Below are positions 6,373 to 24,214 of a stretch of DNA of 32,000 nt, in pieces; within the stretch, counting starts at the first letter, position 1; every line of letters starts with the position of its first letter. A program made the position numbers and the translations under genes. The DNA comes from Desulfocapsa sulfexigens DSM 10523. Its GTDB lineage: Bacteria; Desulfobacterota; Desulfobulbia; Desulfobulbales; Desulfocapsaceae. The stretch covers positions 3,090,001-3,122,000 of the forward strand of contig NC_020304.1 in NCBI RefSeq assembly GCF_000341395.1, written 5' to 3'. Under the pieces are notes generated by a model, which made no database searches, was not told the DNA's origin, and saw only the letters and a program-made list of their open reading frames with translations.

Positions 6373-6820
6373 AATTTATCTATCGGTTGTTTTGCTTGGA
6401 CTTGGATACGGCCATGTTTGTCATTTTCTCTGAATGCTTTTTATTTTCGAGAGAGAAATTTTCAAGTTTCATCCTGATCTTGATTGGAGGAATAGATTTT
6501 CATTTGTCTAAAGGCGAAAACATAATCGAAAAAAGACGAAATACGAGTCCTTTTTATAGCTGATTCAAGATAGAGGTGAGGCTGGAACATTTATCAGGGA
6601 CAAACAGGGGGGGAATCCAGCAGAATTTAACCTGGAAGGAGAGTGATACTGTCATGAATCTTTAGCAAAGTGCAGCTTGTGATTTTGTGGCAATGGACTG
6701 GTGTCAGGGGAAGGCAAGGTCTTGATAAGAACAGAGGGCAATGTTCACCATGTGACTATATGAAAAATAACAGAATTTGGTGAACATTACGCCTTTGCTG
6801 CTGCAATCCGTCGCATGTGT

Positions 6821-7180
6821 TTAACAACCAACAGTTAGTTTTTTCTCGATTTTTACAGCCGTTGGTGTGTCGCTACCAGTGGAATGCCAGATCTTTACCT
6901 TATCCCCTTTCTCAATTTCTTTTGGTGAAGTGTAGCCAACCAGAACAGTGTTCCAGTCAAGAAGAATGGTGCTTTTTTCGCCATTATTCAGTTGCAGGAG
7001 GATGGACTGTTGTTCAGGGTTGAACTGTTTGATTTTTCCCTCAATAAGTTGCACATCAGAACTCTCAGCAACGACGTTACTGTCGTTTCCTGCAGCAACA
7101 ATGGTGGCGGGGATAAGAGAAATAAGAAGGGCAAATACTATAAGATATAACGAAGTGTGTTTGCATATGGAAAGTTTCAT
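6821..7180 (-). CDS. Small exported hypothetical protein (119 aa from the internal ATG)
   Basis: The ATG at 7180 has GGAGAA 6-7 nt upstream. It starts a signal-peptide-like N-terminus (MKLSICKHTSLYLIVFALLISLIPATIVAA). The longer 7216 start lacks an RBS. Confidence 0.55.
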   Translation of the reverse strand: MKLSICKHTSLYLIVFALLISLIPATIVAAGNDSNVVAESSDVQLIEGKIKQFNPEQQSILLQLNNGEKSTILLDWNTVLVGYTSPKEIEKGDKVKIWHSTGSDTPTAVKIEKKLTVGC

Positions 7181-7291
7181 AGGTGTTCTCCTGTAGCTAA
7201 ACTTTTCTAAAGACAACGTATTCAGGTAGTGAAAGATATTCCCTTAAAGCCGTTGTGATAGCTATACTATATGACCTGCTGCCACATTGTG

Positions 7292-7534
7292 CTAGTTGTT
7301 TTGTGGGGGGGAAGTTTTTTTGTCAGGATGATGAAGGCTTTCTTTGAGTAACAGAGCAACTTTCTCTCCGCATCGTTTCGACTTGCAGGAGCCTCCACCA
7401 ATACCTGTTATTTTTGCAATTTCTTCAAAGCTTGTGGCGCCATCCTCGATTGCTTTTAATATTATATGAAGTTTGATTCCTTTACATATACAACCAGGTT
7501 TCATCCGTACGAGTAATTCTTCTTCTGTTATCAT
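7292..7534 (-). CDS. BFD-like (2Fe-2S)-binding domain protein
   Basis: The CxC...C-x4-C pattern (GCICKGIK ... GIGGGSCKSKRCGEK) and ~80-aa size are typical of bacterioferritin-associated-ferredoxin-like domains. Confidence 0.65.
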   Translation of the reverse strand: MITEEELLVRMKPGCICKGIKLHIILKAIEDGATSFEEIAKITGIGGGSCKSKRCGEKVALLLKESLHHPDKKTSPPQNN

Positions 7535-7542
7535 GATACGAT

Positions 7543-9354
7543 TTACTTGTTTTGTGGGTGGAAATGTTGATGTATTACAAATGCTGTCTCCTTCCCTATG
7601 CCCTTAACTTGTGAAAGTTCATCAAGGGATGCCTCTCGAATTCGTTTTACGCTGCCCAATTGTTTGAGAAGTTTCCTTTTCCTGCCAGGGCCAATGCCCG
7701 GGATAGTGTCAAGAACAGATGCAATGGATACCTTGGCGCGTAATTTTCTGTGAAATGTTACTCCAAAACGATGTGATTCATCACGAATGCGCATGATGTA
7801 CAGGAGAACGGGATTATGACTTTTGAGGAGTATCGGATTCTTCCGTCCGGGTTTGTATAACTTTTCTCCCTCTGTGTTTTTTTCTTTGGCAATGCCTATC
7901 CAGTCAAGTTCGTCCCGTATCCCGAGTTCATCGGCCACACGCAGAGCAATTCCAAGTTGTCCACGTCCGCCATCAACTATAAAGAGATCGGGGAGATTGT
8001 TTTCAGCAATGCCACGTTTGAAACGGCGTTGAAGAACTTCTTCCATCATTGCATAATCATCAGGGCCATGGACAGTTTTAATAGCATAATGTCTGAAATG
8101 ATCCTTAGCCGCCTCACCATTTTTGTAACAAACCAATGACCCCACGGCCTGTTTGCCGCTGGTGTTTGAGATATCGAGGCATTCTATATGGTTTGGGATA
8201 TGGTCAAGACGTAAAAGTTTTTCCATTGAAGCTGAAAGGCCCTGCCAGGATCGTTCTTTCTTTTCTTTTTCATCAAAAACATGGGCAGCATTGGTATTGG
8301 CCATTGTGACAAGTCGTACCCGATCACCGCGTTGAGGAATGGTGAGGCCAACGGTTGCACCAATGAGTTCTGAAAATCTTTCTGCAAGGATTACAGAGTC
8401 CTCGATTGGAAAGGGAAGGAGAATCTCTTTTGCAGGTAAAGCTTTTCCATCGTAGAACTGGTTTAGAGCCTGAGAGAGGATGATGGCGTCACTTTCCATA
8501 GGATCATTGAAGAAGAAATTACGACTTCCGGTTATAAGGCCTTCACGAATAAAGAGTATTGCAATGGCGATGGAAGTGCCCTGACGACAGTATCCAAACA
8601 CATCCTGATTTTTAAAGCCCGATGATGCAATAATTTGTTTTTCAAGGGTTCTTGAGAGAGCACTGATCTTGTCCCGAAGTTCTGCTGCAAGTTCAAAGTG
8701 AAGGGTGTCCGATGCTTTCATCATTTCCTGACGAAGTTCATCGATGAGACTCGTATTTTTGCCCTCTAGGACCATAAGTACTTTTTTAACCTGATCCTGA
8801 TACTCTTCCTTATCTGCGATATTGACACAGGGACCGAGACATCTCCCAATCTGCAGATTGAGACAGGGGCGTGTTCTCAGTTTGACAGTGTTGCCCTTGC
8901 ATTTTCGTAAAGGGAACATATCTGCAAGTAACCGCAGGGTGGCCCACATTGAGGAACTTGAAGAATAGGGCCCAAAGTATTTTGCACCATCCTTTTTGCG
9001 TCTGCGAGTCATGTGGACTCTGGGCCAGGTGTCCTGTACCGTAACTTTTATGAGGGGGTAATTTTTGTCATCTCGAAGGAGAATGTTATACTTGGGCTTA
9101 TGCTTTTTAATAAGTGATGCTTCAAGGATTAACGCCTCCTTTTCAGTGGCCGTAAGAAGGGTATCAACTCTGATAACTTTGGAGAGCATTACGGTTGTTT
9201 TGTTATGATCTGCCCCTGTGAAGCGAGTGTATGAAGTCAGCCTGTTTTTGAGATTTTTCGCCTTGCCAACATACAGTACACGCGATTGTTTATCGAGCAT
9301 TCGATAAACGCCTGGTGTTGTGGGCACGGTTTTTAAAAAATTTATCGGAAACAT
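7543..9354 (-). CDS. uvrC: Excinuclease ABC subunit C
   Basis: N-terminal GIY-YIG (GVYRMLDKQSRVLYVGKAKNLKNRLTSY), a UvrB-interacting region, a C-terminal endonuclease domain and (HhH)2 (IPGIGPGRKRKLLKQLGSVKRIREASLDEL). Length 603 aa. Confidence 0.95.
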   Translation of the reverse strand: MFPINFLKTVPTTPGVYRMLDKQSRVLYVGKAKNLKNRLTSYTRFTGADHNKTTVMLSKVIRVDTLLTATEKEALILEASLIKKHKPKYNILLRDDKNYPLIKVTVQDTWPRVHMTRRRKKDGAKYFGPYSSSSSMWATLRLLADMFPLRKCKGNTVKLRTRPCLNLQIGRCLGPCVNIADKEEYQDQVKKVLMVLEGKNTSLIDELRQEMMKASDTLHFELAAELRDKISALSRTLEKQIIASSGFKNQDVFGYCRQGTSIAIAILFIREGLITGSRNFFFNDPMESDAIILSQALNQFYDGKALPAKEILLPFPIEDSVILAERFSELIGATVGLTIPQRGDRVRLVTMANTNAAHVFDEKEKKERSWQGLSASMEKLLRLDHIPNHIECLDISNTSGKQAVGSLVCYKNGEAAKDHFRHYAIKTVHGPDDYAMMEEVLQRRFKRGIAENNLPDLFIVDGGRGQLGIALRVADELGIRDELDWIGIAKEKNTEGEKLYKPGRKNPILLKSHNPVLLYIMRIRDESHRFGVTFHRKLRAKVSIASVLDTIPGIGPGRKRKLLKQLGSVKRIREASLDELSQVKGIGKETAFVIHQHFHPQNK

Positions 9355-9479: not shown

Positions 9480-9500
9480 AATTGTACAAATACATATTTT

Positions 9501-9662
9501 TTCAGGTGCCGTCTGAGGACGGTGAAAAGGGAATACGGTGTGAATCCGTAACGTTGGGCCAGCGCTGTATGCGGGGACAATGGTCACATAGAAGTCACTG
9601 TCGAAATATTTGACGGGAAGGCGTGGCCGGAGGATGATCCGCAGAGTCAGAAGACCTGCCAG
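9501..9662 (+). promoter_or_regulatory. Cobalamin (B12) riboswitch aptamer
   Basis: Conserved cores read directly: GGTGAAAAGGGAATACGGTGTGAATCCGTA, CGCTGTATGCGG, GTCACTG, GGGAAGGC, and the B12 box AGTCAGAAGACCTGCC (9645-9660). P1 pairs CAGGT (9503-9507) with ACCTG (9654-9658). Confidence 0.85.
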
Positions 9663-9690
9663 GAAAAAAAGGATAACGTCGTCCGTACCA

Positions 9691-9767: not shown

Positions 9768-11081
9768 ATGGAAACACAGATTGAAATGGCTCGCAAGGCA
9801 ATTATTACCCCGCAAATGACTAAGGTTGCAGAACAGGAAGGACTTGATGCTGAGTGGATTCGTGAACGTGTCGCTGAAGGAAGAATAGTCATTCCTGTAA
9901 ATCCGAACCGTCAGCATCAGAATATTGTCGGAATAGGATTTGGTCTCAGGACCAAGGTGAACGCATCCATTGGCACCTCGTCGGATATTGCTGATAGTAA
10001 TCTTGAGATCCGGAAAGCTCAAGTTGCCGAAGAGGAAAAAGCGGATACGCTTATGGAGCTTTCAACAGGAGGGAATCTTGACGAGGTTCGTCGTTTAGTA
10101 CTTGAAAACTGCAGTTTACCCGTTGGGAATGTCCCGCTTTACCAGGCTTTTGCAGAGGCAAGTAGGAAATACCATAACCCTGGGAAACTCGATAGCGAAC
10201 ATCTGTTTGAAATTATAGAAAAACAATTGGCTGATGGTATTTCCTTTATGGCGATTCATTGTGGAATTAATCGCTATTCCATAGAACGACTCAGAAATCA
10301 GGGCTATCGATATGGCGGCCTGGTTTCCAAGGGTGGTACCTTTATGGTTTCGTGGATGGAATATAATAATTGTGAGAATCCACTCTATGAGCAGTTTGAC
10401 CGGGTCTGTGGCCTGATGAAAAAATATGACTCGGTACTTTCACTTGGCAATGGTATACGGGCAGGGGCCATTCATGATAGTCATGATCGTGCCCAGATGG
10501 CTGAGATGGTCATTAATTGTGAACTGGCCGAAATTGGGCGTGATATGGGGTGTCAGATGATGGTCGAAGGACCTGGACATGTACCACTTGATGAGATCGA
10601 AGGGAATATTATGCTGGAAAAAAGAATGAGTGGAGGTGCACCGTATTATGTGTTAGGTCCACTCCCTGCAGATTCCGGAGCTGGGTATGATCACATTACA
10701 GCAGCCATTGGCGCTGCAAACTCTGCGCGCCACGGTGCAGACCTTATTTGCTATATTACACCGGCTGAACATCTGGCATTACCTAATGAAGAAGATGTTC
10801 GCGAGGGAGTCAGGGCAACACGACTTGCAGCACGGATTGGTGATATTGCCAAGTACCCTGAAAGGAGGGAACTTGAAAAGAAGGTCGCACTTTCCCGTCG
10901 TGATACCAAGTGGGATGAGCATTTTCAATTGCTGATGTTTCCTGACAAAGCACAGGAAATACGTAAATCGAGAACACCAGAAAATCAGAAGACTTGTACT
11001 ATGTGTGGCGATTTCTGCGCCATGGCAAGAGGCAAAGAAATTTTCTCAGGAGATATGAGAGGGGATAAAATAGCAGATTGA
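9768..11081 (+). CDS. bzaF: ThiC-family radical-SAM enzyme (short, anaerobe-type, 437 aa); context argues for 5-hydroxybenzimidazole synthase BzaF rather than HMP-P synthase ThiC
   Basis: Full-length similarity to ThiC (TKVNASIGTS, LSTGGNLDEVRR, HCGINR, MVEGPGHVPL, and the C-terminal Cys cluster CTMCGDFC). AGGAGA lies upstream of the ATG. The leader is a cobalamin riboswitch, not a TPP riboswitch. Family assignment is firm; the subfamily call is by context only. Confidence 0.85.
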   Translation: METQIEMARKAIITPQMTKVAEQEGLDAEWIRERVAEGRIVIPVNPNRQHQNIVGIGFGLRTKVNASIGTSSDIADSNLEIRKAQVAEEEKADTLMELSTGGNLDEVRRLVLENCSLPVGNVPLYQAFAEASRKYHNPGKLDSEHLFEIIEKQLADGISFMAIHCGINRYSIERLRNQGYRYGGLVSKGGTFMVSWMEYNNCENPLYEQFDRVCGLMKKYDSVLSLGNGIRAGAIHDSHDRAQMAEMVINCELAEIGRDMGCQMMVEGPGHVPLDEIEGNIMLEKRMSGGAPYYVLGPLPADSGAGYDHITAAIGAANSARHGADLICYITPAEHLALPNEEDVREGVRATRLAARIGDIAKYPERRELEKKVALSRRDTKWDEHFQLLMFPDKAQEIRKSRTPENQKTCTMCGDFCAMARGKEIFSGDMRGDKIAD

Positions 11082-13149: not shown

Positions 13150-13416
13150 GTTTTTGATCCTGTTTGTTTAGAGAGGTTAAAGGCTGTATTTGCCGGAGAG
13201 AGAAAATCTTTTAATAAGGGAAATGAGACATAATAATCGGATTTTGATGAAAAGAAAAGATTGAAAAGTATCCATCCTCCAAAGTTTCATAAATACGCAA
13301 TTTTGACCCTTGTTACTTGATATGTTAAGAAAAACTGGTAGTATCTACTAATGATGCAAATAAATTTGTCAATCCCTTGAAGCACCCGGGGCAAATATCT
13401 GTCAGACTGAGGTTGT

Positions 13417-15744
13417 ATGAAGATACGGAGTATTATTTTTCTGATTGTTATTGCATTAGGTCTTTTTCCTGTACTCTTTCTTGTTGCTCTTAATTTACCC
13501 AAAACCATGGAAAGATTAGAATATGCGGCAGAACTTGAAACTCAGGCCAGATCCCAGGTGGGGTTTACTCAGCTGAATGCCCGTATACTCTGTTTGAAGA
13601 AAAGTCTTATTCGTTCCGCGACACTTCCCTCCGTTTATGCAGCGATTGAAGATTCATCCGGAATACCTACTTTGTCAAATGTTGTGAAGAGATGGTTTGA
13701 GAATGATGAACAGGTAAAAGGTATGATGCTTTTCAATGCTGATGGAGTCGAACTTCTTTCCCTGCATAGAAAAAACAGTCACTTTGCCCCATCTGATTTT
13801 TCAGAAAATCATAAGGACCACCTGTTTTTTAATCAGTCGCTGCAGGTACCCGATGACCAGGTATTGGTCAGGTTGGTCGATCAGGAAACAGATCCCTTTC
13901 ATCGTACCGGTAAAGAAGAATATGAACTGATTATGTCGACTCCAGTTATCCTGGATAGCGCCGTCGGAGCTATCGGTATTATGTTGATGCGTATTGACAT
14001 GTCACATTTTTTAACAAATTTCACAGATTCTTACTGGGTTACAGGTGACGGCAATTATGTCCGTGGTTGTGTGGCTGACAGTGAATCATCGGATAGAGAT
14101 TCTGGTGAGATCAGTGATTCCTGTAATGCTTTTGATGAGTTTCCCGATCTTAACAGAAGCGTATCCAGAGATCCTATTATATTGTCTGGAAATGATAAAC
14201 GAAAAATAGCCTGGGTTCCTTTGGTCTTCAATAAGGAACACCACGTTGTGATGTGGGTTGGAACGCTGATTGATGACAGTGCAATAAAAAAATGGAAGAT
14301 GACACTTACCGTAAATGTTATTGTGCTCATTGTTGTAATGACCATTCTTGTTTTTATTGCCGCAAACTGGATCTCTGCTAAAATTGAAATTCTTCAAAGG
14401 GATCTCCTGACACGGCTCGATGATATTATAAATAAAGAAAAACGGATCGATTTCCATTGGGGCGGACCTCTGGAATTGCAGAATTTATCACGTGATCTTA
14501 CTGCATTCTCTGAACGCTACAGTTTAACCTGTGAGGCTAGAAACCTTGCCGAAGCCTCTCTGAGTGAAAGCGAAGACAAATTTCGAAGTCTTACCGGATC
14601 TGCACTTGACGGTATAATCCTCATGGATAATGAAGGATATATAACCTATTGGAACGAGGCAGCTGCTACAATATTTGGCTATAGTCCTGAGGAAGCCCTT
14701 CAACATCCCATCCATTCGCTGATTAATCCTCGCCGTGAAGGAGAGGATCTGTCAGTGGAACCCCTGGAAACCGGAAAGTCGGCAGAGAGTTTATCACAGA
14801 CCGTTGAGCTTATCGCACGAAATGAAAAAGGAGATGACGTGTATGTGGAACTTTCACTGTCATCAACTACCATCAAAGGAAAGTGGCATGCCATCTGGAT
14901 CGTCAGGGATATCAGTGAACGGAAGAGGAGTGAGGATGAAACAAGAAAACAGCAGCAGCAACTTCTCCATGCAGATAAGATGATTTCTCTTGGACTTCTT
15001 GTGTCAGGGGTTGCCCATGAAATTAATAATCCCAACTCTATTGCTCTTTTGAATACTCCGATACTCTTTCGTGCCTGGGAGAGTGCAAAGCCTATTTTGG
15101 ATGAGTTTTTTGAAGAAAATGGAGACTTTTCCATCGCTGGCCTGGATTACAGGGAGATGCGTCAACAACTTCCTCGCATATTTTTAGAACTCGAAGAAAG
15201 TGCTCAGCGGATCAAGCAGATTGTTATGGATTTGAAAGATTATGCCAGACAGGAGACCAGTGGCCAATTGGTACCCGTTGATATCACAGAGGTCGTTAAA
15301 TCCGGTATTCGCTTAACATCAAATACCATTCATAAGAGTACCAATAAATTTATAACTCATTTTTCTCCAACACCTCTTATGGTTCTTGGTAATAGGCAAC
15401 GTCTAACCCAGGTTGTTATTAACCTTATTCAGAATAGCTGTGAGGCTCTTGAAACAACAGACATGTCCCTTACTATTTCAACCCGTTATAATAAGGAAGT
15501 TGATGGTGTGGAAATTTCTATAAAGGATGAAGGCACAGGAATAGCCCCTGAGAATTTAAAACAGGTAACAGATCCATTCTTTACGACAAAACGGTCAATT
15601 GGCGGGACAGGATTGGGACTTTCTGTCTCAGCTGGAATAGTTAAAGAACATCACGGAGTAATGGATTTTAAATCTGAGTTTGGAAAGGGGACAGAGGTTG
15701 TTATCGTTTTCCCTGCGTGCCCCGCAGAGAGTAAGGAAAATTAA
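13417..15744 (+). CDS. Sensor histidine kinase (TM, large extracytoplasmic domain, TM, PAS, HisKA, HATPase_c)
   Basis: N-terminal TM (IIFLIVIALGLFPVLFLVAL), a ~270-aa putative periplasmic domain, a second TM (VNVIVLIVVMTILVFIAANWI), a PAS domain (GIILMDNEGYITYWNEAAATIFGY), H-box GVAHEINNPNS, N-box LIQNSCEAL, and G-boxes DEGTGI and GGTGLGLS. Confidence 0.9.
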   Translation: MKIRSIIFLIVIALGLFPVLFLVALNLPKTMERLEYAAELETQARSQVGFTQLNARILCLKKSLIRSATLPSVYAAIEDSSGIPTLSNVVKRWFENDEQVKGMMLFNADGVELLSLHRKNSHFAPSDFSENHKDHLFFNQSLQVPDDQVLVRLVDQETDPFHRTGKEEYELIMSTPVILDSAVGAIGIMLMRIDMSHFLTNFTDSYWVTGDGNYVRGCVADSESSDRDSGEISDSCNAFDEFPDLNRSVSRDPIILSGNDKRKIAWVPLVFNKEHHVVMWVGTLIDDSAIKKWKMTLTVNVIVLIVVMTILVFIAANWISAKIEILQRDLLTRLDDIINKEKRIDFHWGGPLELQNLSRDLTAFSERYSLTCEARNLAEASLSESEDKFRSLTGSALDGIILMDNEGYITYWNEAAATIFGYSPEEALQHPIHSLINPRREGEDLSVEPLETGKSAESLSQTVELIARNEKGDDVYVELSLSSTTIKGKWHAIWIVRDISERKRSEDETRKQQQQLLHADKMISLGLLVSGVAHEINNPNSIALLNTPILFRAWESAKPILDEFFEENGDFSIAGLDYREMRQQLPRIFLELEESAQRIKQIVMDLKDYARQETSGQLVPVDITEVVKSGIRLTSNTIHKSTNKFITHFSPTPLMVLGNRQRLTQVVINLIQNSCEALETTDMSLTISTRYNKEVDGVEISIKDEGTGIAPENLKQVTDPFFTTKRSIGGTGLGLSVSAGIVKEHHGVMDFKSEFGKGTEVVIVFPACPAESKEN

Positions 15745-15768
15745 AATAAACTATACGAAATAGAGATC

Positions 15769-17187
15769 ATGGTTAAAACTTTGTACCCAACATTACCGGT
15801 TTTATTGGTGGATGATGAAAATGCCTGGCTGAACAGTTTTGGACTGACTCTTCAGGTTGCCGGCATTAATAATATAGTGACTTGCAACGACTCCAGAAAA
15901 GTTATGGAGTTGTTGCGTGCTCAGGCCATAAGTGTTCTGGTTCTTGATCTTACCATGCCACACCTTGCAGGCGATGAACTGTTGCCTCAGGTGGTTCTTG
16001 ATTTTCCTGAAGTGCCGGTAATCATTATTACTGGTTTGGATCAGGTTGAAACGGCTGTCTCCTGCATGAAACTCGGGGCTTATGATTTTTTCACAAAAGT
16101 TACCGAAGAAGAACGTTTAGTAACCGGAGTTAAACGGGCAATTACTTTTGGTTTGTTGCGTCGTGAAAACAGTTCGTTGAAGGAGCATTTCTTAAAAGAT
16201 GAACTCCATAATCCCGATGCGTTCTCCCATATTATTACTCATAACAAATCTATGCGTTCAATTTTCCAGTATATTGAAGCCATCGCTACAACTGGTGAGC
16301 CGGTTTTAATAACTGGAGAAACAGGATCTGGGAAAGAACTATTTGCCCAGGCAATTCATTCACTTTCTGGGAGAGCCGGCGAGTTTGTCGCTGTGAACAT
16401 AGCAGGACTTGATGGAACAATGCTTGCGGACACACTCTTTGGCCATAAAAAGGGGGCCTTTTCAGGGGCTGATCAAAGCCGCAAGGGCCTGATTGCCACT
16501 GCGACCGATGGCAGTCTTTTTCTCGATGAAATTGGTGATCTTACTGCCCAATCACAGGTTAAACTTTTGCGCCTGATACAGGAACGGGAATATTATGCAC
16601 TTGGCTCTGACATTGCTCTAAGTACTAATGTACGCATGATATTTGCTACTCATCAAAACCTTGATTCATTGCAGGAGTCAGGGGAGTTCCGTAAAGATCT
16701 TTTTTTCAGGCTTCGAACGCACCATGTGCATATTCCACCTCTTCGTGAACGTCTGGATGACCTGCCGTTACTTTTAGATTATTTTCTGGACGAGGCAGCG
16801 AGCCGATTAAATAAGGCAAAACCTGCCTACCCTAACGAGTTACCTATTCTTTTGGGAACGTATAATTACCCTGGGAATGTTCGAGAATTGCAATCAATGG
16901 TTTTTGATGCCCTTTCTAAGCATCGCAGTCGAACACTGTCAATGGATGTTTTTAAAAAGTATATAGAGAGCAGAATGGGAACAGCCAATGATATTGAAGA
17001 AGAGGTGACTGGCGAAACAGTGTTCAGTATACTTGGAACCCTGCCTACCCTGAAAGCATCCGGGCGCTTACTTGTTAAGGAGGCATTGCACAGATCGCAG
17101 GGAAACCAGGCTATTGCAGCCCAAATGTTAGGTATTACAAGGCAGGCTCTTAATTGGCGGCTGAAGCAACAGTCTGAAAAAGACTAA
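15769..17187 (+). CDS. Sigma-54-dependent response regulator (REC, AAA+, Fis-type HTH; NtrC family)
   Basis: REC domain with the phospho-acceptor context VLVLDLTMP. Walker A GETGSGKE, Walker B LFLDEIGD, the sigma-54 contact loop as GAFSGA, and a C-terminal HTH (NQAIAAQMLGITRQALNWRLK). It lies 24 nt after the kinase gene. Confidence 0.92.
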   Translation: MVKTLYPTLPVLLVDDENAWLNSFGLTLQVAGINNIVTCNDSRKVMELLRAQAISVLVLDLTMPHLAGDELLPQVVLDFPEVPVIIITGLDQVETAVSCMKLGAYDFFTKVTEEERLVTGVKRAITFGLLRRENSSLKEHFLKDELHNPDAFSHIITHNKSMRSIFQYIEAIATTGEPVLITGETGSGKELFAQAIHSLSGRAGEFVAVNIAGLDGTMLADTLFGHKKGAFSGADQSRKGLIATATDGSLFLDEIGDLTAQSQVKLLRLIQEREYYALGSDIALSTNVRMIFATHQNLDSLQESGEFRKDLFFRLRTHHVHIPPLRERLDDLPLLLDYFLDEAASRLNKAKPAYPNELPILLGTYNYPGNVRELQSMVFDALSKHRSRTLSMDVFKKYIESRMGTANDIEEEVTGETVFSILGTLPTLKASGRLLVKEALHRSQGNQAIAAQMLGITRQALNWRLKQQSEKD

Positions 17188-17204
17188 AAAACGGGGAGGC
17201 TCTT

Positions 17205-17465
17205 GTGGAAAGAATAGAGTGTCTAATAGAAGGATATATACTGGACTTTGAGCAGGCAAGGGAACTTGGCCGAGTTATAGCAGAAAAAGAAAATGACTTT
17301 GCAACTCTTGTTTCATGGTGTGATCGTGACAAGGGGGTGCATTCACCCTGTTGTCTCAAATGTGAACTGAAAGGGGAGCCGGGATGGGAGGTATATGGGC
17401 GGAATCATGAAGGGCGATTAAGGATCTCCGTAGATAGTGACAGGTTTGTCTTTATCTATTCATAG
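17205..17465 (+). CDS. Hypothetical 86-aa protein (GTG start)
   Basis: GTG at 17205 is preceded by GGGGAGG with a 5-nt spacing, 17 nt after the response-regulator stop. It contains HSPCCLKCE. No family recognised. Confidence 0.4.
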   Translation: MERIECLIEGYILDFEQARELGRVIAEKENDFATLVSWCDRDKGVHSPCCLKCELKGEPGWEVYGRNHEGRLRISVDSDRFVFIYS

Positions 17466-17537
17466 TCTAATCTGGTAAAACCTTATATGGAATAGAACAG
17501 AGTGTGTTGCGCAAATGCGTTGTGCCATTTAGACAAC

Positions 17538-17581
17538 AAAAAAAGGCCTTCAGTATGCAAGCATACCGAAGGCCTTTTTTT
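17538..17581. terminator. Bidirectional terminator between the convergent two-component operon and the oxidoreductase operon
   Basis: A7-GGCCTTC-(GTATGC AA GCATAC)-GAAGGCC-T7: a 13-bp interrupted stem flanked by A- and T-runs. Confidence 0.85.
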
Positions 17582-17608
17582 ACTTCCATTCCGAAAACAG
17601 ACTGTATT

Positions 17609-18418
17609 TTATTTATTGTCCTTGTCTTCAGAAAGTCCTTTTACAAGCATGGCACCGGCAAGTCCAAGTATGCCGATATCTTTAGCTTTTCTCATAGCAG
17701 GTTTCACCATTGAAGCCATCATGGCACGTCTTTTAACGCTACCCATGTCAGCAAGTTTTGGTGTGTAGTCTGCAAAGAGAAGCCCCATATCCTTTTTGTT
17801 GCCATAGTAGCGAGAGTTAGGACCAATGTGGCCATCTTGTACTTCAAGGCCTTTGGCACCTTTCTTCACGTACTGTGAAACGGCGGAATTAGGATCATCA
17901 AGATCACCGAAAATACGAGCATCGGCAATACATGTTTGAACACAGGCAGGTACAAGGCCCTGGTCAACACGAGGTTTACAGTAAGTACATTTGTCGACCT
18001 TTCCCTCGCTGTTATCGTCAGCTTGGGCAGGATTAACATAACGTGCGCCGTAAGGACAGGCGTCGGCACAGGCACCACAACCAAGACAACGATCCTTGTC
18101 GACTTGTACTGATCCATCAAATGGATCTTTCCAGGTGGCTGCTACCTCTAGAGTGGTAGTTTTTCCTGTTTTAACATCTGTGAAAGTCCTTTCAACGACA
18201 TCTGCAGGACATTCCTCCACACAGGGTGGTTTGTCACAGTGATTACAAAGTCCGGGATAGTAGGTTGAGGCCATTCCATCATCGGTCATGGTTGGGCCAA
18301 GACGTTTTACCCAGTTACGCTGGTAAGGAACTGGAACTTCCCACTCTGCCCGACAGGCAATAGTGCAGGCATGACAGCCGACACAGCGTTCCAGATCTAT
18401 GATCATTCCATATTGCAT
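17609..18418 (-). CDS. 4x[4Fe-4S] electron-transfer subunit (PsrB/PhsB/DmsB/NrfC-like) with a C-terminal hydrophobic tail
   Basis: Four ferredoxin-type Cys groups (CVGCHACTIAC; CNHCDKPPCVEEC; CLGCGACADAC; CTYC...ACVQTC). AGGAGG lies upstream of the ATG. The C-terminal extension ends ...KDIGILGLAGAMLVKGLSEDKDNK. Confidence 0.9.
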   Translation of the reverse strand: MQYGMIIDLERCVGCHACTIACRAEWEVPVPYQRNWVKRLGPTMTDDGMASTYYPGLCNHCDKPPCVEECPADVVERTFTDVKTGKTTTLEVAATWKDPFDGSVQVDKDRCLGCGACADACPYGARYVNPAQADDNSEGKVDKCTYCKPRVDQGLVPACVQTCIADARIFGDLDDPNSAVSQYVKKGAKGLEVQDGHIGPNSRYYGNKKDMGLLFADYTPKLADMGSVKRRAMMASMVKPAMRKAKDIGILGLAGAMLVKGLSEDKDNK

Positions 18419-18454
18419 TGAATATATCCTCCTGAAAAGGCTTAAAAGATAAGA

Positions 18455-20695
18455 TTAAGCTGGAATATCCAGAACCTTTCCATTTTTGATCAATTTAACA
18501 AAGTTATTTCTCATTCCGTGACATCCGGTTTCAGGGTCAACAGCCAGTTTGGTGATAAGAGAAGTGTCATCTACACCAGCGCCAACACCTATTGTCATAA
18601 GTGGATTGGCACTACCAAAACCGTGGTACATATAAACACAGTCTTTTCTGATACCGGCAGTGACTTTCACTGTGGTGGTGGTAGCGGATTCAACTCCCTC
18701 ACTGTTTACAAAACCAACAGTATCGCCATCAATGAGACCAATTTTCGCGGCAACCTCATCATTCACCCAAACAGGGTTGTCAGGCATGGCATTGTGGAGC
18801 CATACGTTATTCTGACTTCTGTTGAAGGTATGAACAGGGGCACGTCCGTACAACAGTCTGGCAAATCCCTTTGGATTGTCAGGGACTGGTATATAGGTTG
18901 GTGCTCCCGGATGTCCGGTATCAGCGATATCTTCGTTGAAAAGACGGACTTCAAATTCTTCCGGGATTCCGTATGGGTCTTTGCCTGGCTGAATATGGAT
19001 GCCATCTTCAGCTTTCAGTTTCTCAATTGAGAGATTTACAGTGGCCAGGTTCTTGTCAACCATTTCTTCCATGGTTTTTACAGGAATTTTAGCCTCGTGG
19101 CCCATGCGTTTGGCAATTTCATTGGTGATGTAGATCTGATCCTTACGTTCAAACATAGGTGGAACGAGAGGCATACGGGCAGAAATGTACTGCTGATGCT
19201 CCTTGGAGAGATCCCATTGTGTTCCAGTCTTGATATAATCGTAACGCTCAAGATAACTTGCTTCAGGCAAGAGAATGTCAGCCCACGCAGTTACGTCAGT
19301 TGGCATAACATCAACACACATGACGAAATCCATGGCGTTGAAGAGATCTTTCATCATCTGCTGATTTGGGATGGTCTGCATTGGGTTCTGACCCCACACA
19401 ACACAGCTTTTGATTGGGTAGGGTTTGCCTGAAATAGCACAGTCCCGAATGAGGTCGGTTGGGGTTCCAGGGGGATTGTAAGGATAAACCTTTTCGTCCT
19501 CATGATGATCATAATTGAGATCATACTTATGACCATGATCCTCTTTCTTCCAGCTTACACCGCCTACCTTTGGTCCTTTTGCTGGAACCCAGCCACCTTT
19601 TACATAGTAGGCGCCAAGAATTCCGGTGAGACAGGCAAGTGCACGCTCGCGTTGGAAGTCATTTCCATGCCATGAAACGTGACGGCCTGGATGGATTGCG
19701 ACATTTGGCGCATTGGCTGCAAGCATCTCAGCAACTTCTTTGATCTGAGCAGCTGGAATATCACATTCCTTTGCAGCTTTTTCTAAGGTCCATTCTTTTA
19801 TTGATTCAGCAAACTGCTCAAAGCCATCGGTATGATCTTCAACAAACTCCTTGTCATACTTATCGTTCTGTACCAGGTAATTCATGATGGCAAGCATGTA
19901 GGCAGTGTCTGTGCCAGGTTTGATCTGAACCCAGATGTCAGCCTTTGCAGCAGAAGCTGAAAAACGAGGATCAGCAACAATCAGCTTAGCTCCATTTTGC
20001 AAACCTTGAATGTACTGTTTGATGTGAGAAACATGAATGTTTTCACCAAGATGGTCTCCAATAAAAAAGAGAACTTTGGTGTTTGGCATATCAATTTTTT
20101 CACCGGGGGCTTTGCCAATGGTGGCAACGTATGCGGTGTCACGAATACCGCGACACTGAAAAAAAGAAGCCTCGGAGACATTGTGAGTTCCTACGGCACG
20201 CTCAAAATAGTGCATGGGGTATTTTGCTGAAGCACCATGTGGAAAAACACAGATACCTTGAGCACCATATTGATCAACGGTATTTTTCAGCTTGGAGCCA
20301 CATTCATCAAGTGCCTCTTTCCAGGAAATACGTTTCCACTTCGGGGCACCACGCTTTCCGACGTTTTTCATTGGGTACTTCAAACGGTCCACATCATAAA
20401 GCAGTTTAACACCTGCATTACCACGAGCACATATAGCAGTGCCGTTATCAATGGATTTTGGGTTTCCTTCGAGCTTCATCAGGCGGCCGTCACGAACTTT
20501 ACCGACCAGCTGACAACGCCAGAAACACATTTCGCAGATCCCACCCACAACGGTTTGATCGCCAGCAGTACCCGGTGTGTCGAGTGCTGATTTGGTGACA
20601 CCGGTGCTAGCGGAAACAACCTTCGACAGAGGTACCGAGGCTGCTGCCAGGGTTGCCGTCTGAAGGAATTTACGCCTCGTTAGGTTGAAAGCCAT
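18455..20695 (-). CDS. Tat-exported molybdopterin (Mo/W-bisPGD) oxidoreductase catalytic subunit, Psr/Phs/Arr/Ttr-like clade
   Basis: The ATG at 20695 has AGGAGG 9 nt upstream. Twin-arginine signal MAFNLTRRKFLQTATLAAASVP. N-terminal FS0 motif CEMCFWRC...C(ARG). A candidate Mo-ligand Cys in FFQCRGIRD. ~746 aa. No in-frame TGA. Confidence 0.88.
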   Translation of the reverse strand: MAFNLTRRKFLQTATLAAASVPLSKVVSASTGVTKSALDTPGTAGDQTVVGGICEMCFWRCQLVGKVRDGRLMKLEGNPKSIDNGTAICARGNAGVKLLYDVDRLKYPMKNVGKRGAPKWKRISWKEALDECGSKLKNTVDQYGAQGICVFPHGASAKYPMHYFERAVGTHNVSEASFFQCRGIRDTAYVATIGKAPGEKIDMPNTKVLFFIGDHLGENIHVSHIKQYIQGLQNGAKLIVADPRFSASAAKADIWVQIKPGTDTAYMLAIMNYLVQNDKYDKEFVEDHTDGFEQFAESIKEWTLEKAAKECDIPAAQIKEVAEMLAANAPNVAIHPGRHVSWHGNDFQRERALACLTGILGAYYVKGGWVPAKGPKVGGVSWKKEDHGHKYDLNYDHHEDEKVYPYNPPGTPTDLIRDCAISGKPYPIKSCVVWGQNPMQTIPNQQMMKDLFNAMDFVMCVDVMPTDVTAWADILLPEASYLERYDYIKTGTQWDLSKEHQQYISARMPLVPPMFERKDQIYITNEIAKRMGHEAKIPVKTMEEMVDKNLATVNLSIEKLKAEDGIHIQPGKDPYGIPEEFEVRLFNEDIADTGHPGAPTYIPVPDNPKGFARLLYGRAPVHTFNRSQNNVWLHNAMPDNPVWVNDEVAAKIGLIDGDTVGFVNSEGVESATTTTVKVTAGIRKDCVYMYHGFGSANPLMTIGVGAGVDDTSLITKLAVDPETGCHGMRNNFVKLIKNGKVLDIPA

Positions 20696-21260
20696 CTTTG
20701 TCTTCCTCCTTAGTAAAAAAATCAATTAATTGTACAACCACCCTATAAAATGGATGGTGAGCTCCTTTCGTTACCCTGGGGTGAAACTTTTTGTACCAGG
20801 GGCGAAACAGTTTTTTCAAGAACTCCTCTTCTCCGGAGAAGTCGTTTTCTTCGGCAAGAAGTGACAGGAATTCAAGTTCATGAATTAAATGGTCGGGCAG
20901 ATCAGCGCTTTTATCCATTTCAAAGCCTTTGGTATGGTAAAAGGCGAGAGTGTCGCCGGCAAATGTTCCCTGTAAAGATTGGTCCATGTATACGGATCCG
21001 TAAGGGGGTGCAACGACGTGAGGGACTCCATTGATAAAGAGTCTGGTATATTCGACCTGAAGGTCTTCGATTGCATCATCTGTATTGTCAATTGCTTTTT
21101 TGATGGCGATACCATCTTCAACGGCGTCTAAGGTTCCTAGAAAATTGTAGAGGACATTGAAGAATTCATCATTCATCCATTCTTGATCAGGGTACTGCAT
21201 GCACTGAGCAAGGAAACGGTAGACCCGGGCGATATCATTGGAAGGTTCAGTATCTAACAT
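20670..21260 (-). CDS. TorD/DmsD-family redox-enzyme maturation chaperone
   Basis: Typical features: EYTRLFINGVPHVVAPPYGSVY, LAFYHTKGF, PDHLIHELEFLS, and ~196 aa length. Its 3' end overlaps the catalytic-subunit start by 26 nt. Confidence 0.8.
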   Translation of the reverse strand: MLDTEPSNDIARVYRFLAQCMQYPDQEWMNDEFFNVLYNFLGTLDAVEDGIAIKKAIDNTDDAIEDLQVEYTRLFINGVPHVVAPPYGSVYMDQSLQGTFAGDTLAFYHTKGFEMDKSADLPDHLIHELEFLSLLAEENDFSGEEEFLKKLFRPWYKKFHPRVTKGAHHPFYRVVVQLIDFFTKEEDKDGFQPNEA

Positions 21261-21373
21261 GAGTTGTTATATTAAAAGCAGTAGTGTCAAAATAACCTGG
21301 TCTTGAAGAGTTATGTTGCATTAGAGAAACAGTGGTTTCATTCTTCAACTGTAATTGTCACAAAGTAGTGCCT

Positions 21374-21402
21374 AGCATAGCCACATGGAACTATCTTGTC
21401 AA
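21374..21402 (-). promoter_or_regulatory. Candidate sigma-70 promoter for the chaperone/oxidoreductase operon
   Basis: On the minus strand: TTGACA (21402-21397), 17-nt spacer, TATGCT (21379-21374), about 110 nt upstream of the ATG at 21260. Confidence 0.45.
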
Positions 21403-21657
21403 CGAATTGCTGCCCACTAGGCTTGAAAAAACAGGTAGTTGAGAATGATTTGCAATCCTGTGCCATCTGGTACCCTTAATTTTCTGTAAAAATTCATAAA
21501 AAACCTTCCAGTTACAAAGCCTGAAGTAAAGAACTTTCTAAACCTCAATGAGGAGGTTTGTAAAGTAAAATTGTCATGATTGGCGTATCTTGCCAGACTG
21601 TCAATGTGCGATATTTAAATAAAATCATACTTACAAGGTGATGAGGCCTTCTGGACC

Positions 21658-21699
21658 GGTGCAAAATAAATTGCTATCTGGTGCAAAAAAGTTTGCTAT
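21658..21699. promoter_or_regulatory. Two tandem 20-bp repeats, each with an internal dyad (candidate regulator/enhancer binding sites)
   Basis: GGTGCAAAATAAATTGCTAT (21658-21677) and GGTGCAAAAAAGTTTGCTAT (21680-21699), 17/20 identical with a 22-bp period. Internal dyads are GCAA-N6-TTGC and GCAAA-N4-TTTGC. They lie 100-140 bp upstream of the ATG at 21799. Confidence 0.4.
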
Positions 21700-21798
21700 T
21701 ATTTTTGTCATATGTTAGCAATTACACATAAGGGAATAAATGTAGTACTCAGGGCCTGGCAGGGTGGTTTTTGAAATATTTTGAAAGGGAGATTAAAA

Positions 21799-22161
21799 AT
21801 GAAAGGAAAAACAATTTGTTTTGCACTGGGGCTGATAACAATTTTGATTTCGGCGAATTCATTGATAGCAGAAGTTGTAGTAGATCCCACGTATTCAGAA
21901 ATTGATGGTGTTTATTTTTCTGATCCCTCTGTCAACTGTATTGAACTCAAAAACTCTGAGGCCTGCGAGATGTTTAAGGCTGAGGAAATTTATTCCTCAA
22001 GGGATGGAATTTCCTATTCAGATTGTACCATAGAATGTGAGGATATGCTTGAGAGTGATGCATGTTTCAGTTTTCGTGACACCTATCCATGTCCTGGGGA
22101 TTCAGATTCCCTAGTTGCCTCTTTGAGCTCTTTGGAAGACGAAAATCAAACTACAAATTGA
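21799..22161 (+). CDS. Small Sec-exported, acidic, Cys-rich hypothetical protein (120 aa)
   Basis: The ATG at 21799 has GGGAGA upstream. Signal peptide MKGKTICFALGLITILISANSLIA. The mature ~96 aa has 6 Cys and a large excess of Asp/Glu. No family recognised. Confidence 0.6.
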   Translation: MKGKTICFALGLITILISANSLIAEVVVDPTYSEIDGVYFSDPSVNCIELKNSEACEMFKAEEIYSSRDGISYSDCTIECEDMLESDACFSFRDTYPCPGDSDSLVASLSSLEDENQTTN

Positions 22162-22216
22162 GAACAAGTTTGTCATACTACTGCGACAATGTATAAAAAA
22201 TTCTGGGGAGAATAAA

Positions 22217-22633
22217 ATGACTCGAAAAAACATGTTAGTACTTACAGGGCTAGTGATTTTCACTTTTACAACTTGTCTTGCTTTTGCAGCAGAGGATGAG
22301 TGGAGTGATTATGACCCATGTGGCTGGAATGTTGAGAATGAAGGAGTTGGAACAGAGGATGTCGCAGAACTTCAGTGGACGGATTATGACCCTTGTGGTT
22401 GGAATGTTGAGGAAGCTGTGGATGGTTCTGTAGAAGTTGCTGAGCTTGAATGGACAGATTACGATCCATGTGGTTGGAATGTTGAGAATGAAGGAGTTGG
22501 AACAGAGGTTGTCGCAGAACTTCAGTGGACAGATTATGACCCCTGTGGCTGGAATGTTGAAGATGATACCATGAAGTCTGAGGTTGTCGAGGTGTTTGCT
22601 GCTGATACTATGGTAACGGGCTATATGAACTGA
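22217..22633 (+). CDS. Sec-exported acidic tandem-repeat protein (4 x W-[ST]-DYDPCGWNVE)
   Basis: GGGGAG lies upstream of the ATG. Signal peptide with an AFA|A cleavage site. Four 25-aa repeats follow. Synonymous codon differences inside the invariant core support real coding. No family recognised. Confidence 0.75.
   Translation: MTRKNMLVLTGLVIFTFTTCLAFAAEDEWSDYDPCGWNVENEGVGTEDVAELQWTDYDPCGWNVEEAVDGSVEVAELEWTDYDPCGWNVENEGVGTEVVAELQWTDYDPCGWNVEDDTMKSEVVEVFAADTMVTGYMN
22301..22561 (+). repeat. Intragenic 75-nt tandem repeat array (3 full units plus a 36-nt fourth core); units 1 and 3 form a 150-nt higher-order duplication
   Basis: Units start at 22301, 22376, 22451 and 22526, each with TGG. 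Unit 1 and unit 3 are 69/75 nt identical by my count. Confidence 0.9.
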
Positions 22634-22667
22634 TCACCTGTATTTATTATTGACCCTGTTCACATTC

Positions 22668-22740
22668 GGGATATCTGTTTTGTGCGTAGCTCCAGCCCTA
22701 AGTAACGGAGCTGGTCTCAAGAACAGTATCCCGTTTTTTT
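22668..22740 (+). terminator. Probable Rho-independent terminator after the two secreted-protein genes
   Basis: Long composite hairpin GGGATA(T)CTGTT ... AACAGTATCCC (22668-22732) enclosing an inner AGCTCC/GGAGCT stem, followed by GTTTTTTT (22733-22740). Confidence 0.55.
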
Positions 22741-22819
22741 ATGGCATGCTGGTGAGTAGTGCAACTGTGCTTGTTTGAGTAAGAGGAAATGTGGTTTTAT
22801 GTATGCTTCAGCCATGGTT

Positions 22820-24214
22820 TTAGTATGCTGATTTGTCAATAGTAATATTATGTTTTTTAAGGTGCTTCCAAAGAGTAACTCTGGAAATACCGAGAATCCT
22901 GGCGGCCTCTGATTTGTTTCCATTGGCAGCTTTAATGGCTTGCAGCAATTGTTCCCGTCGATTTTGGGATGTGCTGATTTGTGGGGTTCCAAAATGTCCC
23001 GCAGGTTGATTGTCTTTCTGAAATTGCTGAGGAAGGTGTTTAGGGGTAATTTCATCCTCGGGGCATATTACAAAAGTATATTCTATAACATTAATCAGTT
23101 CACGAATGTTTCCTGGCCAGTGATAGTCTACTAAAAGATCAAGGGCATCTTTTCGGATAGTAGTTATATCTTTTTCTATTTTAAGGTTGGCATTGTCGAT
23201 GAATGTTTTAACCAGAAGAGGAATGTCTTCCGGATGGTTTCTCAGTGGGGGGATAGTTATTGGGATAACGCCAATCCTGTAAAAGAGATCTTCCCTGAAT
23301 TTATGCTCAAGCATGAGAGTGTTCAGGTTTTTGTTGGTTGCTGAAATCACACGAACATCTATGGAAATTGGTTGATGGTCTCCAACACGTTCAACTTCCT
23401 GTTCCTGAAGAACTCGCAGGAGTTTGGTTTGCATGCTAAGAGGGAGATCACCGATTTCATCAAGAAAAATTGAACCTTTGTTCGCTGCCTCAAACCGTCC
23501 AGTTCTATCCCTGTCTGCACCCGTAAAGGCCCCTTTAGTATGGCCAAAAAGCTCACTTTCAAGAATGTTTTCGTTTAATGCGGCGCAGTTCACCTTGATA
23601 AAAGGAGATTTTGCGCGTCTGCTCAGCTTGTGGATTGCGCTGGCAACCAACTCTTTTCCTGTGCCACTTTCTCCATAAATAATAATTGGAGCATTGGACA
23701 AAGCTGCACTTTTAATGAGTTCGTACACCTGCTGCATGGTGGAACTGTTTCCAATAAGACCATGAAAGCTGTTACCACGATTAAGTTCTCTGCGGAGATC
23801 ACAGATCTCCTTTTCTTTGTCGATAACTGCAGTGAGGTCAGTGAGGGTCTCGACACCGGCTACGGTAACGCCACTTTTGTCAGTCAGAACCGTTGCATTT
23901 TTCAGGACTTCAACACGGGTACCATTCTTTTGCTTGAAAGAGCAGTGCAGGTCACTCACGTCTCCCTTTCTGAAGAGACTGCATCGTCTTTCCTTGTCCA
24001 CGACATCATGGCCGAAGCAATTGTCGCACTCCAGTATATCACAGGGTTGTCCAAGAAGTTCTTCTCTGCTGTAGTGGAGAAGATCTTCCAGTGCCCTGTT
24101 GACATACAGAATATTTCCCTGAACATCAACGAGCATGAGTCCTTCCTTCATTTTATCTACAACGTCTTTCCAGTTATCACAGAAGTAATCTTTAATCTTT
24201 TCTTTCTGTATCAT
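22820..24214 (-). CDS. Sigma-54-dependent transcriptional activator (PAS, AAA+, Fis-type HTH; no receiver domain)
   Basis: N-terminal PAS (GLMLVDVQGNILYVNRALEDLLHYSREELLG). Walker A GESGTGKE, canonical GAFTGA, Walker B IFLDEIGD, and a C-terminal HTH (KSEAARILGISRVTLWKHLKK). Confidence 0.92.
   Translation of the reverse strand: MIQKEKIKDYFCDNWKDVVDKMKEGLMLVDVQGNILYVNRALEDLLHYSREELLGQPCDILECDNCFGHDVVDKERRCSLFRKGDVSDLHCSFKQKNGTRVEVLKNATVLTDKSGVTVAGVETLTDLTAVIDKEKEICDLRRELNRGNSFHGLIGNSSTMQQVYELIKSAALSNAPIIIYGESGTGKELVASAIHKLSRRAKSPFIKVNCAALNENILESELFGHTKGAFTGADRDRTGRFEAANKGSIFLDEIGDLPLSMQTKLLRVLQEQEVERVGDHQPISIDVRVISATNKNLNTLMLEHKFREDLFYRIGVIPITIPPLRNHPEDIPLLVKTFIDNANLKIEKDITTIRKDALDLLVDYHWPGNIRELINVIEYTFVICPEDEITPKHLPQQFQKDNQPAGHFGTPQISTSQNRREQLLQAIKAANGNKSEAARILGISRVTLWKHLKKHNITIDKSAY

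Follow-up and report, generated by a model that had tools for sequence, protein, structure and literature searches.

A locus in Desulfocapsa sulfexigens DSM 10523 (UWK_02787-02795) combines the published MOLY cluster, molyCAB, with two genes for small secreted cysteine proteins, here called cysA and repB. It lies in a 32-kb stretch of DNA, called the window below, in whose numbering all coordinates without a locus name are given. We favour, with moderate confidence, the reading that the locus consists of the MOLY core and an optional, separately controlled cysA-repB accessory. The original prediction was of one integrated redox system, in which MolyAB would use as substrate, or receive its supply from, a species bound to the Cys proteins and two sigma-54 regulators are jointly in control. 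Its gene inventory was confirmed: all nine listed genes (9/9) were found at the same coordinates, in the same order and on the same strands by open reading frame (ORF) mapping and by domain scans with Pfam and NCBIfam. Sequence look-up returned exact protein matches for 8/9 of their products, within AGF79318-AGF79326.

The core enzyme is already known. MolyA is identical over 746/746 residues to WP_015405008.1, a seed of the MolyA hidden Markov model (HMM) (Novak et al. 2026, supplement 11), and the window proteins WP_015405007.1 and WP_015405009.1 are the MolyB and MolyC HMM seeds. Because the trio are MOLY seed sequences, the anchorless Mo-oxidoreductase had already been described in D. sulfexigens DSM 10523 itself. 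The MOLY cluster comprises two molybdopterin oxidoreductase subunits together with a TorD/DmsD chaperone; it was named by Allioux et al. 2022 after comparative genomics of sulfur disproportionators (PMC9676032). It is found in 90% of elemental sulfur (S0) disproportionators and was rated among the two best candidate markers of S0 disproportionation (Novak et al., ISME J 2026, PMC12998232). Phylogeny, the chaperone and the missing membrane anchor tell it apart from PhsA (PMC12998232). Its role in S0 disproportionation is a proposal from comparative genomics alone (PMC9676032, PMC12998232); D. sulfexigens itself disproportionates S0 (PMC3739170). The window holds the same system: a catalytic subunit with a molybdenum-bis-pyranopterin guanine dinucleotide (Mo-bisPGD) cofactor and a twin-arginine translocation (Tat) signal, a four-cluster subunit and a TorD-type chaperone, with the membrane anchor missing. 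The features of the locus are as follows.

13417..15744, plus strand: sensor histidine kinase (HK) AGF79318, exact match, with an N-terminal transmembrane helix, a periplasmic dCache_3-like domain, PAS, HisKA and HATPase (Pfam, NCBIfam)
15769..17187, plus strand: NtrC/AtoC-type response regulator (RR54) AGF79319, with receiver, sigma-54 AAA+ and HTH_8 domains
17205..17465, plus strand: 86-aa protein UWK_02789 of the DUF5619/AF1514 family (PF18505, E=6.5e-29)
17609..18418, minus strand: MolyB, four-[4Fe-4S] electron-transfer subunit, WP_015405007.1 (Fer4_11; MolyB HMM seed)
18455..20695, minus strand: MolyA, Tat Mo/W-bisPGD catalytic subunit of Psr/Phs type, WP_015405008.1 (MolyA seed identity)
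20670..21260, minus strand: MolyC, TorD/DmsD-family redox-enzyme maturation chaperone, WP_015405009.1 (Nitrate_red_del, PF02613, E=5e-19; MolyC HMM seed)
21261-21798: intergenic control region between molyC and cysA, 538 bp if cysA starts at the ATG at 21799
21374..21402, minus strand: predicted molyCAB sigma-70-type promoter TTGACA-17-TATGCT, ~115 nt upstream of the molyC ATG (consensus scan)
21430..21455, minus strand: operator-like block TTGCAAATCATTCTCAACTACCTGTT upstream of the moly promoter (phylogenetic footprint)
21659..21696, plus strand: cysA-repB tandem palindromic operator, two copies of GTGCAA-N6-TTGC, 22 bp centre to centre
21739..21748, plus strand: conserved box AATGTAGTAC, candidate promoter element (alignment, spacing)
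21799..22161, plus strand: cysA, UWK_02793, WP_015405010.1, with a Sec signal and a 96-aa acidic mature protein with 6 conserved Cys; orphan family
22217..22633, plus strand: repB, with a Sec signal and 4 repeats (D/E)EW(S/T)DYDPCGWNVE; orphan family
22667..22740, plus strand: long terminator-like hairpin with U7, located where repB and the gene of the PAS activator converge (RNA fold -29.5 kcal/mol, z = -3.0)
22820..24214, minus strand: PAS / sigma-54 AAA+ / HTH_8 activator AGF79326 (Sigma54_activat E=1.8e-72, PAS_9)

The MolyA start is ATG 20695 (MAFNLTRRKFLQ, with the twin-arginine motif) and not TTG 20725. The closest solved structure is Thermus thermophilus PsrA (2VPW_A), which aligns over the full length (E=4e-140). 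Equivalents of PsrA Cys173, His145 and Arg332 are kept in MolyA; we take Cys173 to be the Mo ligand and the other two to be active-site residues of 2VPW. MolyA shares 42-44% identity with the founding MolyA proteins of Thermosulfurimonas (T. dismutans) and Dissulfuribacter (D. thermophilus), and 71% with that of Desulfobulbus propionicus. MolyB contains 16 Cys in four cluster motifs, and its residues 1-193 align with PsrB (2VPW_B, E=1.7e-33). They are followed by a C-terminal extension of 75 aa (window 17609-17840), ...GPNSRYYG-KKD-LLF...KRRAMMASMVKPAMRKAKDIGILGLAGAMLVKGL, which is kept in most of ~75 orthologues and includes a short, weakly hydrophobic segment, IGILGLAGAMLV. This hydrophobic stretch is absent in loci L062, L063, L065, L084 and L085. 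This part of MolyB might anchor the subunit by its tail or serve as a helix on which an electron partner docks.

No NrfD/PsrC-type gene and no cytochrome gene was found in the window, and ORF clustering of 80 related loci detected no membrane-protein cluster and no cytochrome gene recurring beside the trio. The description of a periplasmic Psr/Phs-type reductase without an anchor therefore held, with the MolyB tail as a qualifier. Like PsrABC (T. thermophilus, 2VPW-2VPZ; Wolinella succinogenes) and PhsABC, the window has a full-length PsrA-like subunit with a Cys ligand and a PsrB-like subunit. It differs from them in lacking the quinol-oxidising NrfD-type subunit PsrC/PhsC and in adding a TorD-type chaperone gene and the MolyB extension. 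MolyAB thus resembles the Psr/Phs catalytic module, yet appears to fall outside these families, as there is no PsrC and MolyA scores 443 bits on the NCBIfam PhsA model, under the cut-off of 694. In the mechanism that we propose, MolyA and MolyB would be exported together to the periplasm, with MolyC acting as a cytoplasmic TorD-type chaperone. MolyAB would reduce, or reversibly oxidise, periplasmic sulfane-type sulfur (polysulfide or S0-derived sulfur, thiosulfate or sulfite). Electrons would be exchanged through MolyB with periplasmic cytochromes or a tail-docked membrane partner, and not directly with quinol.

The distribution of the genes separates the core from the accessory. A scan of species-representative genomes with tblastn and ORF clustering yielded 80 loci with MolyA identities of 94-60%, nearly all from Desulfobulbales. 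The counts are of loci, not of whole genomes, and a further set (L001-L005, L086, L089, L118) was found through RepB and CysA queries. Only molyCAB is universal: molyC, molyA and molyB stand together in 75-83 loci, and MolyC is present in 78/80. HK, RR54 and DUF5619 occur together only at MolyA identities of at least ~78%, in 12-14 loci of a single Desulfocapsaceae clade; about 20 Desulfocapsaceae loci in all show them syntenic with the reductase. The PAS activator is patchy (~12 loci). In five loci (L009, L039, L011, L028 and L029) it is the immediate upstream neighbour of molyC and shares its strand, and the small proteins are missing from the gap; three of the five belong to the group with MolyA identity of at least 86%.

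CysA and RepB are rarer still. In the 80-locus scan CysA was detected in L006, L007 and L008 and RepB in L018 only. Among the 23 species-level loci with MolyA identity of at least 86%, three have CysA, one has RepB and none has both (either protein: 4/23), and in 8/23 dusB abuts molyC with nothing between. More distant moly loci contain neither protein. The arrangement of the window, full or partial, is found in the loci recovered with the RepB and CysA queries. RepB adjoins molyC in 8/12 known contexts (the window/L118, L086, L001, L002, L003, L004/5, L018, L089). In L087, L090 and L101 it is found, with the same operator, at sites that have no moly cluster beside them, and a more divergent member is placed likewise in L088. 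The gap between dusB and molyC has at least six different states. In L012 a transposase-like ORF with a zinc-ribbon N-terminus (7927-8565) lies between the PAS activator and molyC, which is consistent with a variable region. Judged by this distribution, the small proteins belong to a variable region, where they are patchily present as an accessory, and they do not accompany the enzyme constantly; cysA-repB is best described as an optional, movable accessory between dusB and molyC.

The clustering had been taken as a sign of one functional unit, to be refuted by a lack of synteny in related genomes. Synteny is preserved for molyCAB and for HK/RR54/DUF5619, whose linkage is kept in one clade, and RepB often stands beside molyC; but the PAS activator and the small proteins are variable, and for CysA and RepB synteny is lost in most close loci. 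Other neighbours stand beside two of the loci. In L080 (7602-9105) and L083 (7055-9348), from Geopsychrobacteraceae and Geobacteraceae, a phosphate-selective-type porin and a small secreted protein ending in ...QGC precede molyCAB, and in L080 multihaem cytochromes c follow it, beside molyB (13305-16377).

The control regions point in the same direction. The 538-bp divergent region was found as originally described, with the cysA ATG at 21799. An alignment of the 230 nt 5' of molyC from 25 Desulfocapsa-clade loci uncovered hexamers of the form TTGACA-17-TATG(C/T)T, kept in most of the loci whatever stands further upstream. The block TTGCAAATCATTCTCAACTACCTGTT is likewise present in loci missing CysA, RepB or both (for example L009, L011, L012, L014, L024, L027, L039). 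These patterns suggest that molyCAB has its own conserved sigma-70-type promoter and a moly-specific upstream operator. Sigma-54 promoters were searched for across all loci by consensus with mismatches, by a weighted scan and with strict patterns. The canonical GG-N10-GC (-24/-12) element was found before molyC in no locus, and no credible or conserved one was found before cysA or repB. Because the molyCAB promoter is of the sigma-70 type and no -24/-12 element precedes molyC or cysA, the predicted control by two sigma-54 inputs is not supported. Two candidate sites were rejected. TGGCACAGGATTGCA at 21465 on the minus strand (TGGCAC-N4-TTGC, overlapping the conserved block) is wrongly spaced, as GG-N9-GC, and the TGGCAC of its -24 half is not conserved; TGGCAGGGTGGTTTTT at 21757 has no -12 GC and is not conserved. 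In the control region, neither a Moco riboswitch nor any other Rfam element was detected.

The cysA-repB side has signals of its own. The palindromes GTGCAA-N6-TTGC at 21659-21674 and 21681-21696 are the sole exact matches in the window, and the only genes that tandem copies precede in the loci are cysA and repB. The box AATGTAG(T/C)AC (AATGTAGTAC) begins 41-42 nt (42 in the window) past the end of the second palindrome and does not fit the sigma-54 -24/-12 consensus. The same operator and box precede repB at its non-moly sites. A metagenome scan for operator plus box returned 28 matches. Five have a tandem site, and each of these lies upstream of cysA or repB. The other 23/28 were taken as chance because they have no tandem site and no related gene. 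Standing in tandem, 16 bp long each and with a half-site of the TGCA type, the palindromes resemble the sites of AtoC, NtrC and LuxO. The cysA-repB pair is therefore best regarded as a separate, terminator-bounded predicted transcription unit, with a private operator that appears to travel along with it.

CysA and RepB constitute tiny orphan families of predicted Sec-exported, polyanionic thiol proteins. Mature CysA has 96 aa, a net charge of -19 and 6 Cys in a fixed conserved pattern. Mature RepB has 114 aa, a net charge of -31 (32 Asp/Glu against 1 Lys/Arg), 4 Cys and 8 Trp. It is built of four copies of (D/E)EW(S/T)DYDPCGWNVE, each with an invariant Cys, and has a conserved C-terminal Y-x-N. 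The corresponding 75-bp DNA repeats (22299-22560) are a duplicated two-repeat unit. Among relatives the repeat number ranges from 1 to 5, with up to 5 in L018 and L101. In a collection of 5.8 billion proteins, CysA forms 3 clusters and RepB 5 clusters. A profile search of 1.84 billion representatives found 9 true RepB relatives, with 1-3 repeats each; the repeat proteins P0069, P0071 and P0072 in the same search are unrelated.

Neither protein has a Pfam or NCBIfam domain, including rhodanese, and only spurious sub-threshold matches were seen. AlphaFold2 models are of low confidence (mean predicted local distance difference test score 51.5 for RepB and 38.8 for CysA), and the RepB model suggests disorder, with no secondary structure outside the signal-peptide helix. 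The exact RepB sequence had no match in the protein collection looked up; the protein is presumably AGF79325, annotated from another start. RepB was ruled out as a lipoprotein, since a lipobox is missing and the Cys of the signal peptide is not conserved. It was also ruled out as a precursor of the cysteine tryptophylquinone (CTQ) type or of a ribosomally synthesized and post-translationally modified peptide (RiPP), as there is no modifying-enzyme gene nearby. In L089 (7595-7990), the short divergent cysA-like frame upstream of repB (DFCSDCSVECGDVCEAETCLNHRDIYLG) represents cysA in a decayed or far diverged form; no tandem operator was found at this site. CysA is not mentioned in the available parts of PMC9676032, PMC13490349 and PMC12998232, with a portion of the supplement, and UWK_0279x and WP_015405008/10 are named in the main text of no indexed paper.

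What these proteins do can be proposed only tentatively. The invariant Cys, and the fact that a Psr-like enzyme is encoded close by, speak for thiol and sulfur chemistry, and CysA and RepB could buffer or carry reactive sulfur in a Sud-like auxiliary role, a suggestion to which we give clearly less than even weight. Their extreme acidity argues equally for the binding of cations or FeS minerals, which we consider about as probable. There are precedents for partner proteins: Sud with Psr in W. succinogenes, and the rhodanese SbdP with sulfur reductase in Aquifex aeolicus (PMC6378623). The concept is the same, namely a periplasmic Cys-dependent carrier that passes sulfane sulfur to a Psr-type enzyme, but CysA and RepB differ in being optional and strongly acidic and in having no rhodanese domain or detectable fold. 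The Sud site is basic. The original statement that no described locus has such partners thus applies to CysA and RepB themselves, which are undescribed, but not to the enzyme, which is MOLY, or to the partner concept.

A different account, possible but in our view the less probable one, is that CysA and RepB are unconnected with the reductase. In that case they would be lineage-specific secreted polyanions for handling cations or minerals (Fe(II), FeS, ferrihydrite surfaces) or for the envelope, which landed in a recombination-prone region. Their acidity and predicted disorder, their own operator and terminator, the occurrence of repB at unrelated loci, the changing repeat number and the variable dusB-molyC gap, including the insertion sequence in L012, all agree with this. 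However, the position beside molyC recurs in relatives in which CysA and RepB share only 50-70% identity with the window's proteins, and the invariant Cys of the PCGW motif points to thiol chemistry over simple charge. Metal binding would also be a conjecture from charge.

The two regulators of the locus probably act elsewhere. RR54 has Sigma54_activat (E=3.8e-55) and Response_reg (E=6.6e-21) domains, and its best NCBIfam match is AtoC (300 bits, under the cut-off). With the HK, this receiver/AAA+/HTH_8 regulator corresponds to AtoSC/NtrBC two-component systems with sigma-54 enhancer-binding proteins, but unlike in those systems no matching -24/-12 promoter lies downstream in the window. The PAS activator has four invariant Cys and a fifth that is nearly so in its PAS domain, in the pattern C(58)-x4-C-x2-C-x11-C-x12-C (residues 58-91). 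We take this Cys-rich domain to recall Fe-S or redox-sensing PAS domains such as that of NreB. The DUF5619 protein UWK_02789 has no signal peptide, carries a CC-x2-C motif (SPCCLKCE), has a dN/dS (ratio of nonsynonymous to synonymous substitution rates) of 0.065 and matches PDB 3C0F (AF_1514, E=1e-3). Of MOLY's neighbours outside the core it is the most persistent, and it stays convergent to molyB without HK and RR54 in L015, L021, L025, L062 and L063. A literature search on DUF5619 and AF1514 found nothing relevant.

Candidate targets of the regulators were detected in sister loci. In 9 of them, a gene for a ~445-aa triple-rhodanese lipoprotein occupies the space between ettA and either the moly cluster or the HK-RR54-DUF5619 operon; it is absent from the D. 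sulfexigens window. Its coordinates are as follows.

L028: 18173-19501
L029: 17865-19193
L031: 17864-19192
L032: 9984-11312
L036: 13523-14848
L025: 12721-14034
L062: 13605-14897
L063: 3738-5060
L065: 13508-14830

In the six loci translated, the rhodanese motif CGG(P/V)T-TGA-GM(S/A) contains a conserved in-frame TGA, and ~20 nt past it there is a hairpin, CGCC-GGTC(A/T)-GGCG. The protein is probably a selenocysteine rhodanese encoded next to MOLY, judging from its reading frame. Canonical sigma-54 promoters (e.g. TGGCACGACCTTTGCT, TGGCACATGAAATGCA) lie 109 to 121 nt upstream of the rhodanese start in L028 (18060, plus strand), L029, L031 and L032, which are exactly the loci where HK-RR54 is divergent from the rhodanese gene. 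A sigma-54 promoter is also present in L087, at -91 from the rhodanese start at ~14961. HK-RR54 therefore probably controls the rhodanese gene and not moly. In L028 a gene on the minus strand (5853-7328) encodes a 491-aa secreted octahaem cytochrome c with 8 CxxCH, divergent from the PAS activator orthologue and preceded by the sigma-54 promoter TGGTATGGAAATTGCT at 7500 (minus strand). This cytochrome gene may be the ancestral target of the PAS activator. Because canonical GG-N10-GC promoters precede the rhodanese and octahaem cytochrome genes in relatives, we infer that these genes, absent from the window, are the activators' targets. In D. sulfexigens, HK-RR54 and the PAS activator would most likely drive sigma-54 promoters elsewhere. 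The available parts of PMC9676032, PMC12998232 and PMC13490349 were found to describe neither the genes that flank molyCAB (HK, RR54, DUF5619, PAS activator) nor the secreted Cys proteins, the promoter architecture or the probable rhodanese selenoprotein.

The single integrated system first proposed finds partial support and is, on this evidence, unlikely. The divergent layout around a shared control region speaks for it, as do the 8 contexts in which RepB is adjacent to molyC and the Cys in each RepB repeat. The rhodanese lipoproteins near moly in 9 sister loci match the Sud-Psr precedent, and the tandem palindromes resemble enhancer-binding-protein sites. Against this, either small protein accompanies only 4/23 close loci and neither the distant ones, and repB with its operator is found away from moly. 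The moly promoter is of the sigma-70 type, is conserved regardless of neighbours and has no -24/-12 counterpart. In L009 and L039 the PAS activator is present but the small proteins are not, and in L018 and L089 RepB is present but the PAS activator is not.

A more far-reaching variant of the sulfur-carrier role is improbable in our estimation, more so than the integrated system. CysA and RepB would be an unrecognised class of repeat-built thiol carriers whose PCGW Cys open S8 or polysulfide and deliver sulfane sulfur to MolyAB, and in sister clades the selenocysteine rhodanese, under HK-RR54/sigma-54, would do the same job. Finally, that the small ORFs are chance ORFs or decaying repeats rather than genes is very improbable: they are short, have no database domain, very few homologues and low-confidence models, but the dN/dS against orthologues (cysA 0.14-0.22, repB 0.14-0.28, at dS ~0.9-1.5) contradicts this and identifies both as real genes, which also have Shine-Dalgarno sequences, conserved signal peptides, Cys positions and Y-x-N, a conserved operator and, for CysA, an annotation as UWK_02793.

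Several points weigh against the favoured reading, that of a MOLY core with an optional accessory. The adjacency of RepB and molyC in 8/12 contexts could reflect function and not shared ancestry. Since the cysA-repB operator resembles enhancer-binding-protein sites, one of the two local activators may control cysA-repB after all. The hydrophobic MolyB tail may be a true membrane anchor. The sulfur substrate of MolyAB is itself predicted from sequence, and the RepB charge of -31 makes it less likely that anionic polysulfide is bound. In the Dissulfuribacter thermophilus proteome MolyA is up under H2/sulfite and not under thiosulfate disproportionation. No expression, biochemical or genetic literature on the D. 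sulfexigens moly locus was found.

The surroundings of the locus are unrelated to it. The housekeeping borders ettA and dusB were verified, each above its curated cut-off (EttA 965 bits, cut-off 599; DusB 338 bits, cut-off 293). The remaining window encodes housekeeping proteins (MetH, UvrC, a ThiC-like gene, transketolase, LeuS). Two tRNA genes lie near the window start (200-272, 303-376). Methionine synthase is split into two adjacent ORFs, the homocysteine-methyltransferase part at 5434-6372 and the rest at 3011-5437. A cobalamin riboswitch (100 bits; 9487-9677) is located directly 5' of the ThiC-family gene (9768-11081), which scores 508 bits on the model of BzaB (B12 lower ligand). This gene is probably a benzimidazole-synthase-type ThiC paralogue and not thiamine ThiC.

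The mechanism of bacterial S0 disproportionation is a long-standing open question, for which MOLY is a leading candidate marker. The analysis adds no new enzyme. Its new elements are two orphan families of secreted Cys proteins, which have an operator private to them, and a description of MOLY's regulatory and rhodanese surroundings. They amount to leads and not to a demonstrated new system, and they caution against taking CysA and RepB for obligatory partners. They do provide handles in a model organism: the molyCAB promoter and operator, the two-component system, the Cys-rich PAS activator, DUF5619 and the secreted thiol proteins. If the thiol-carrier reading were true, it would supply the missing sulfur-activation step of S0 disproportionation in Desulfocapsa.

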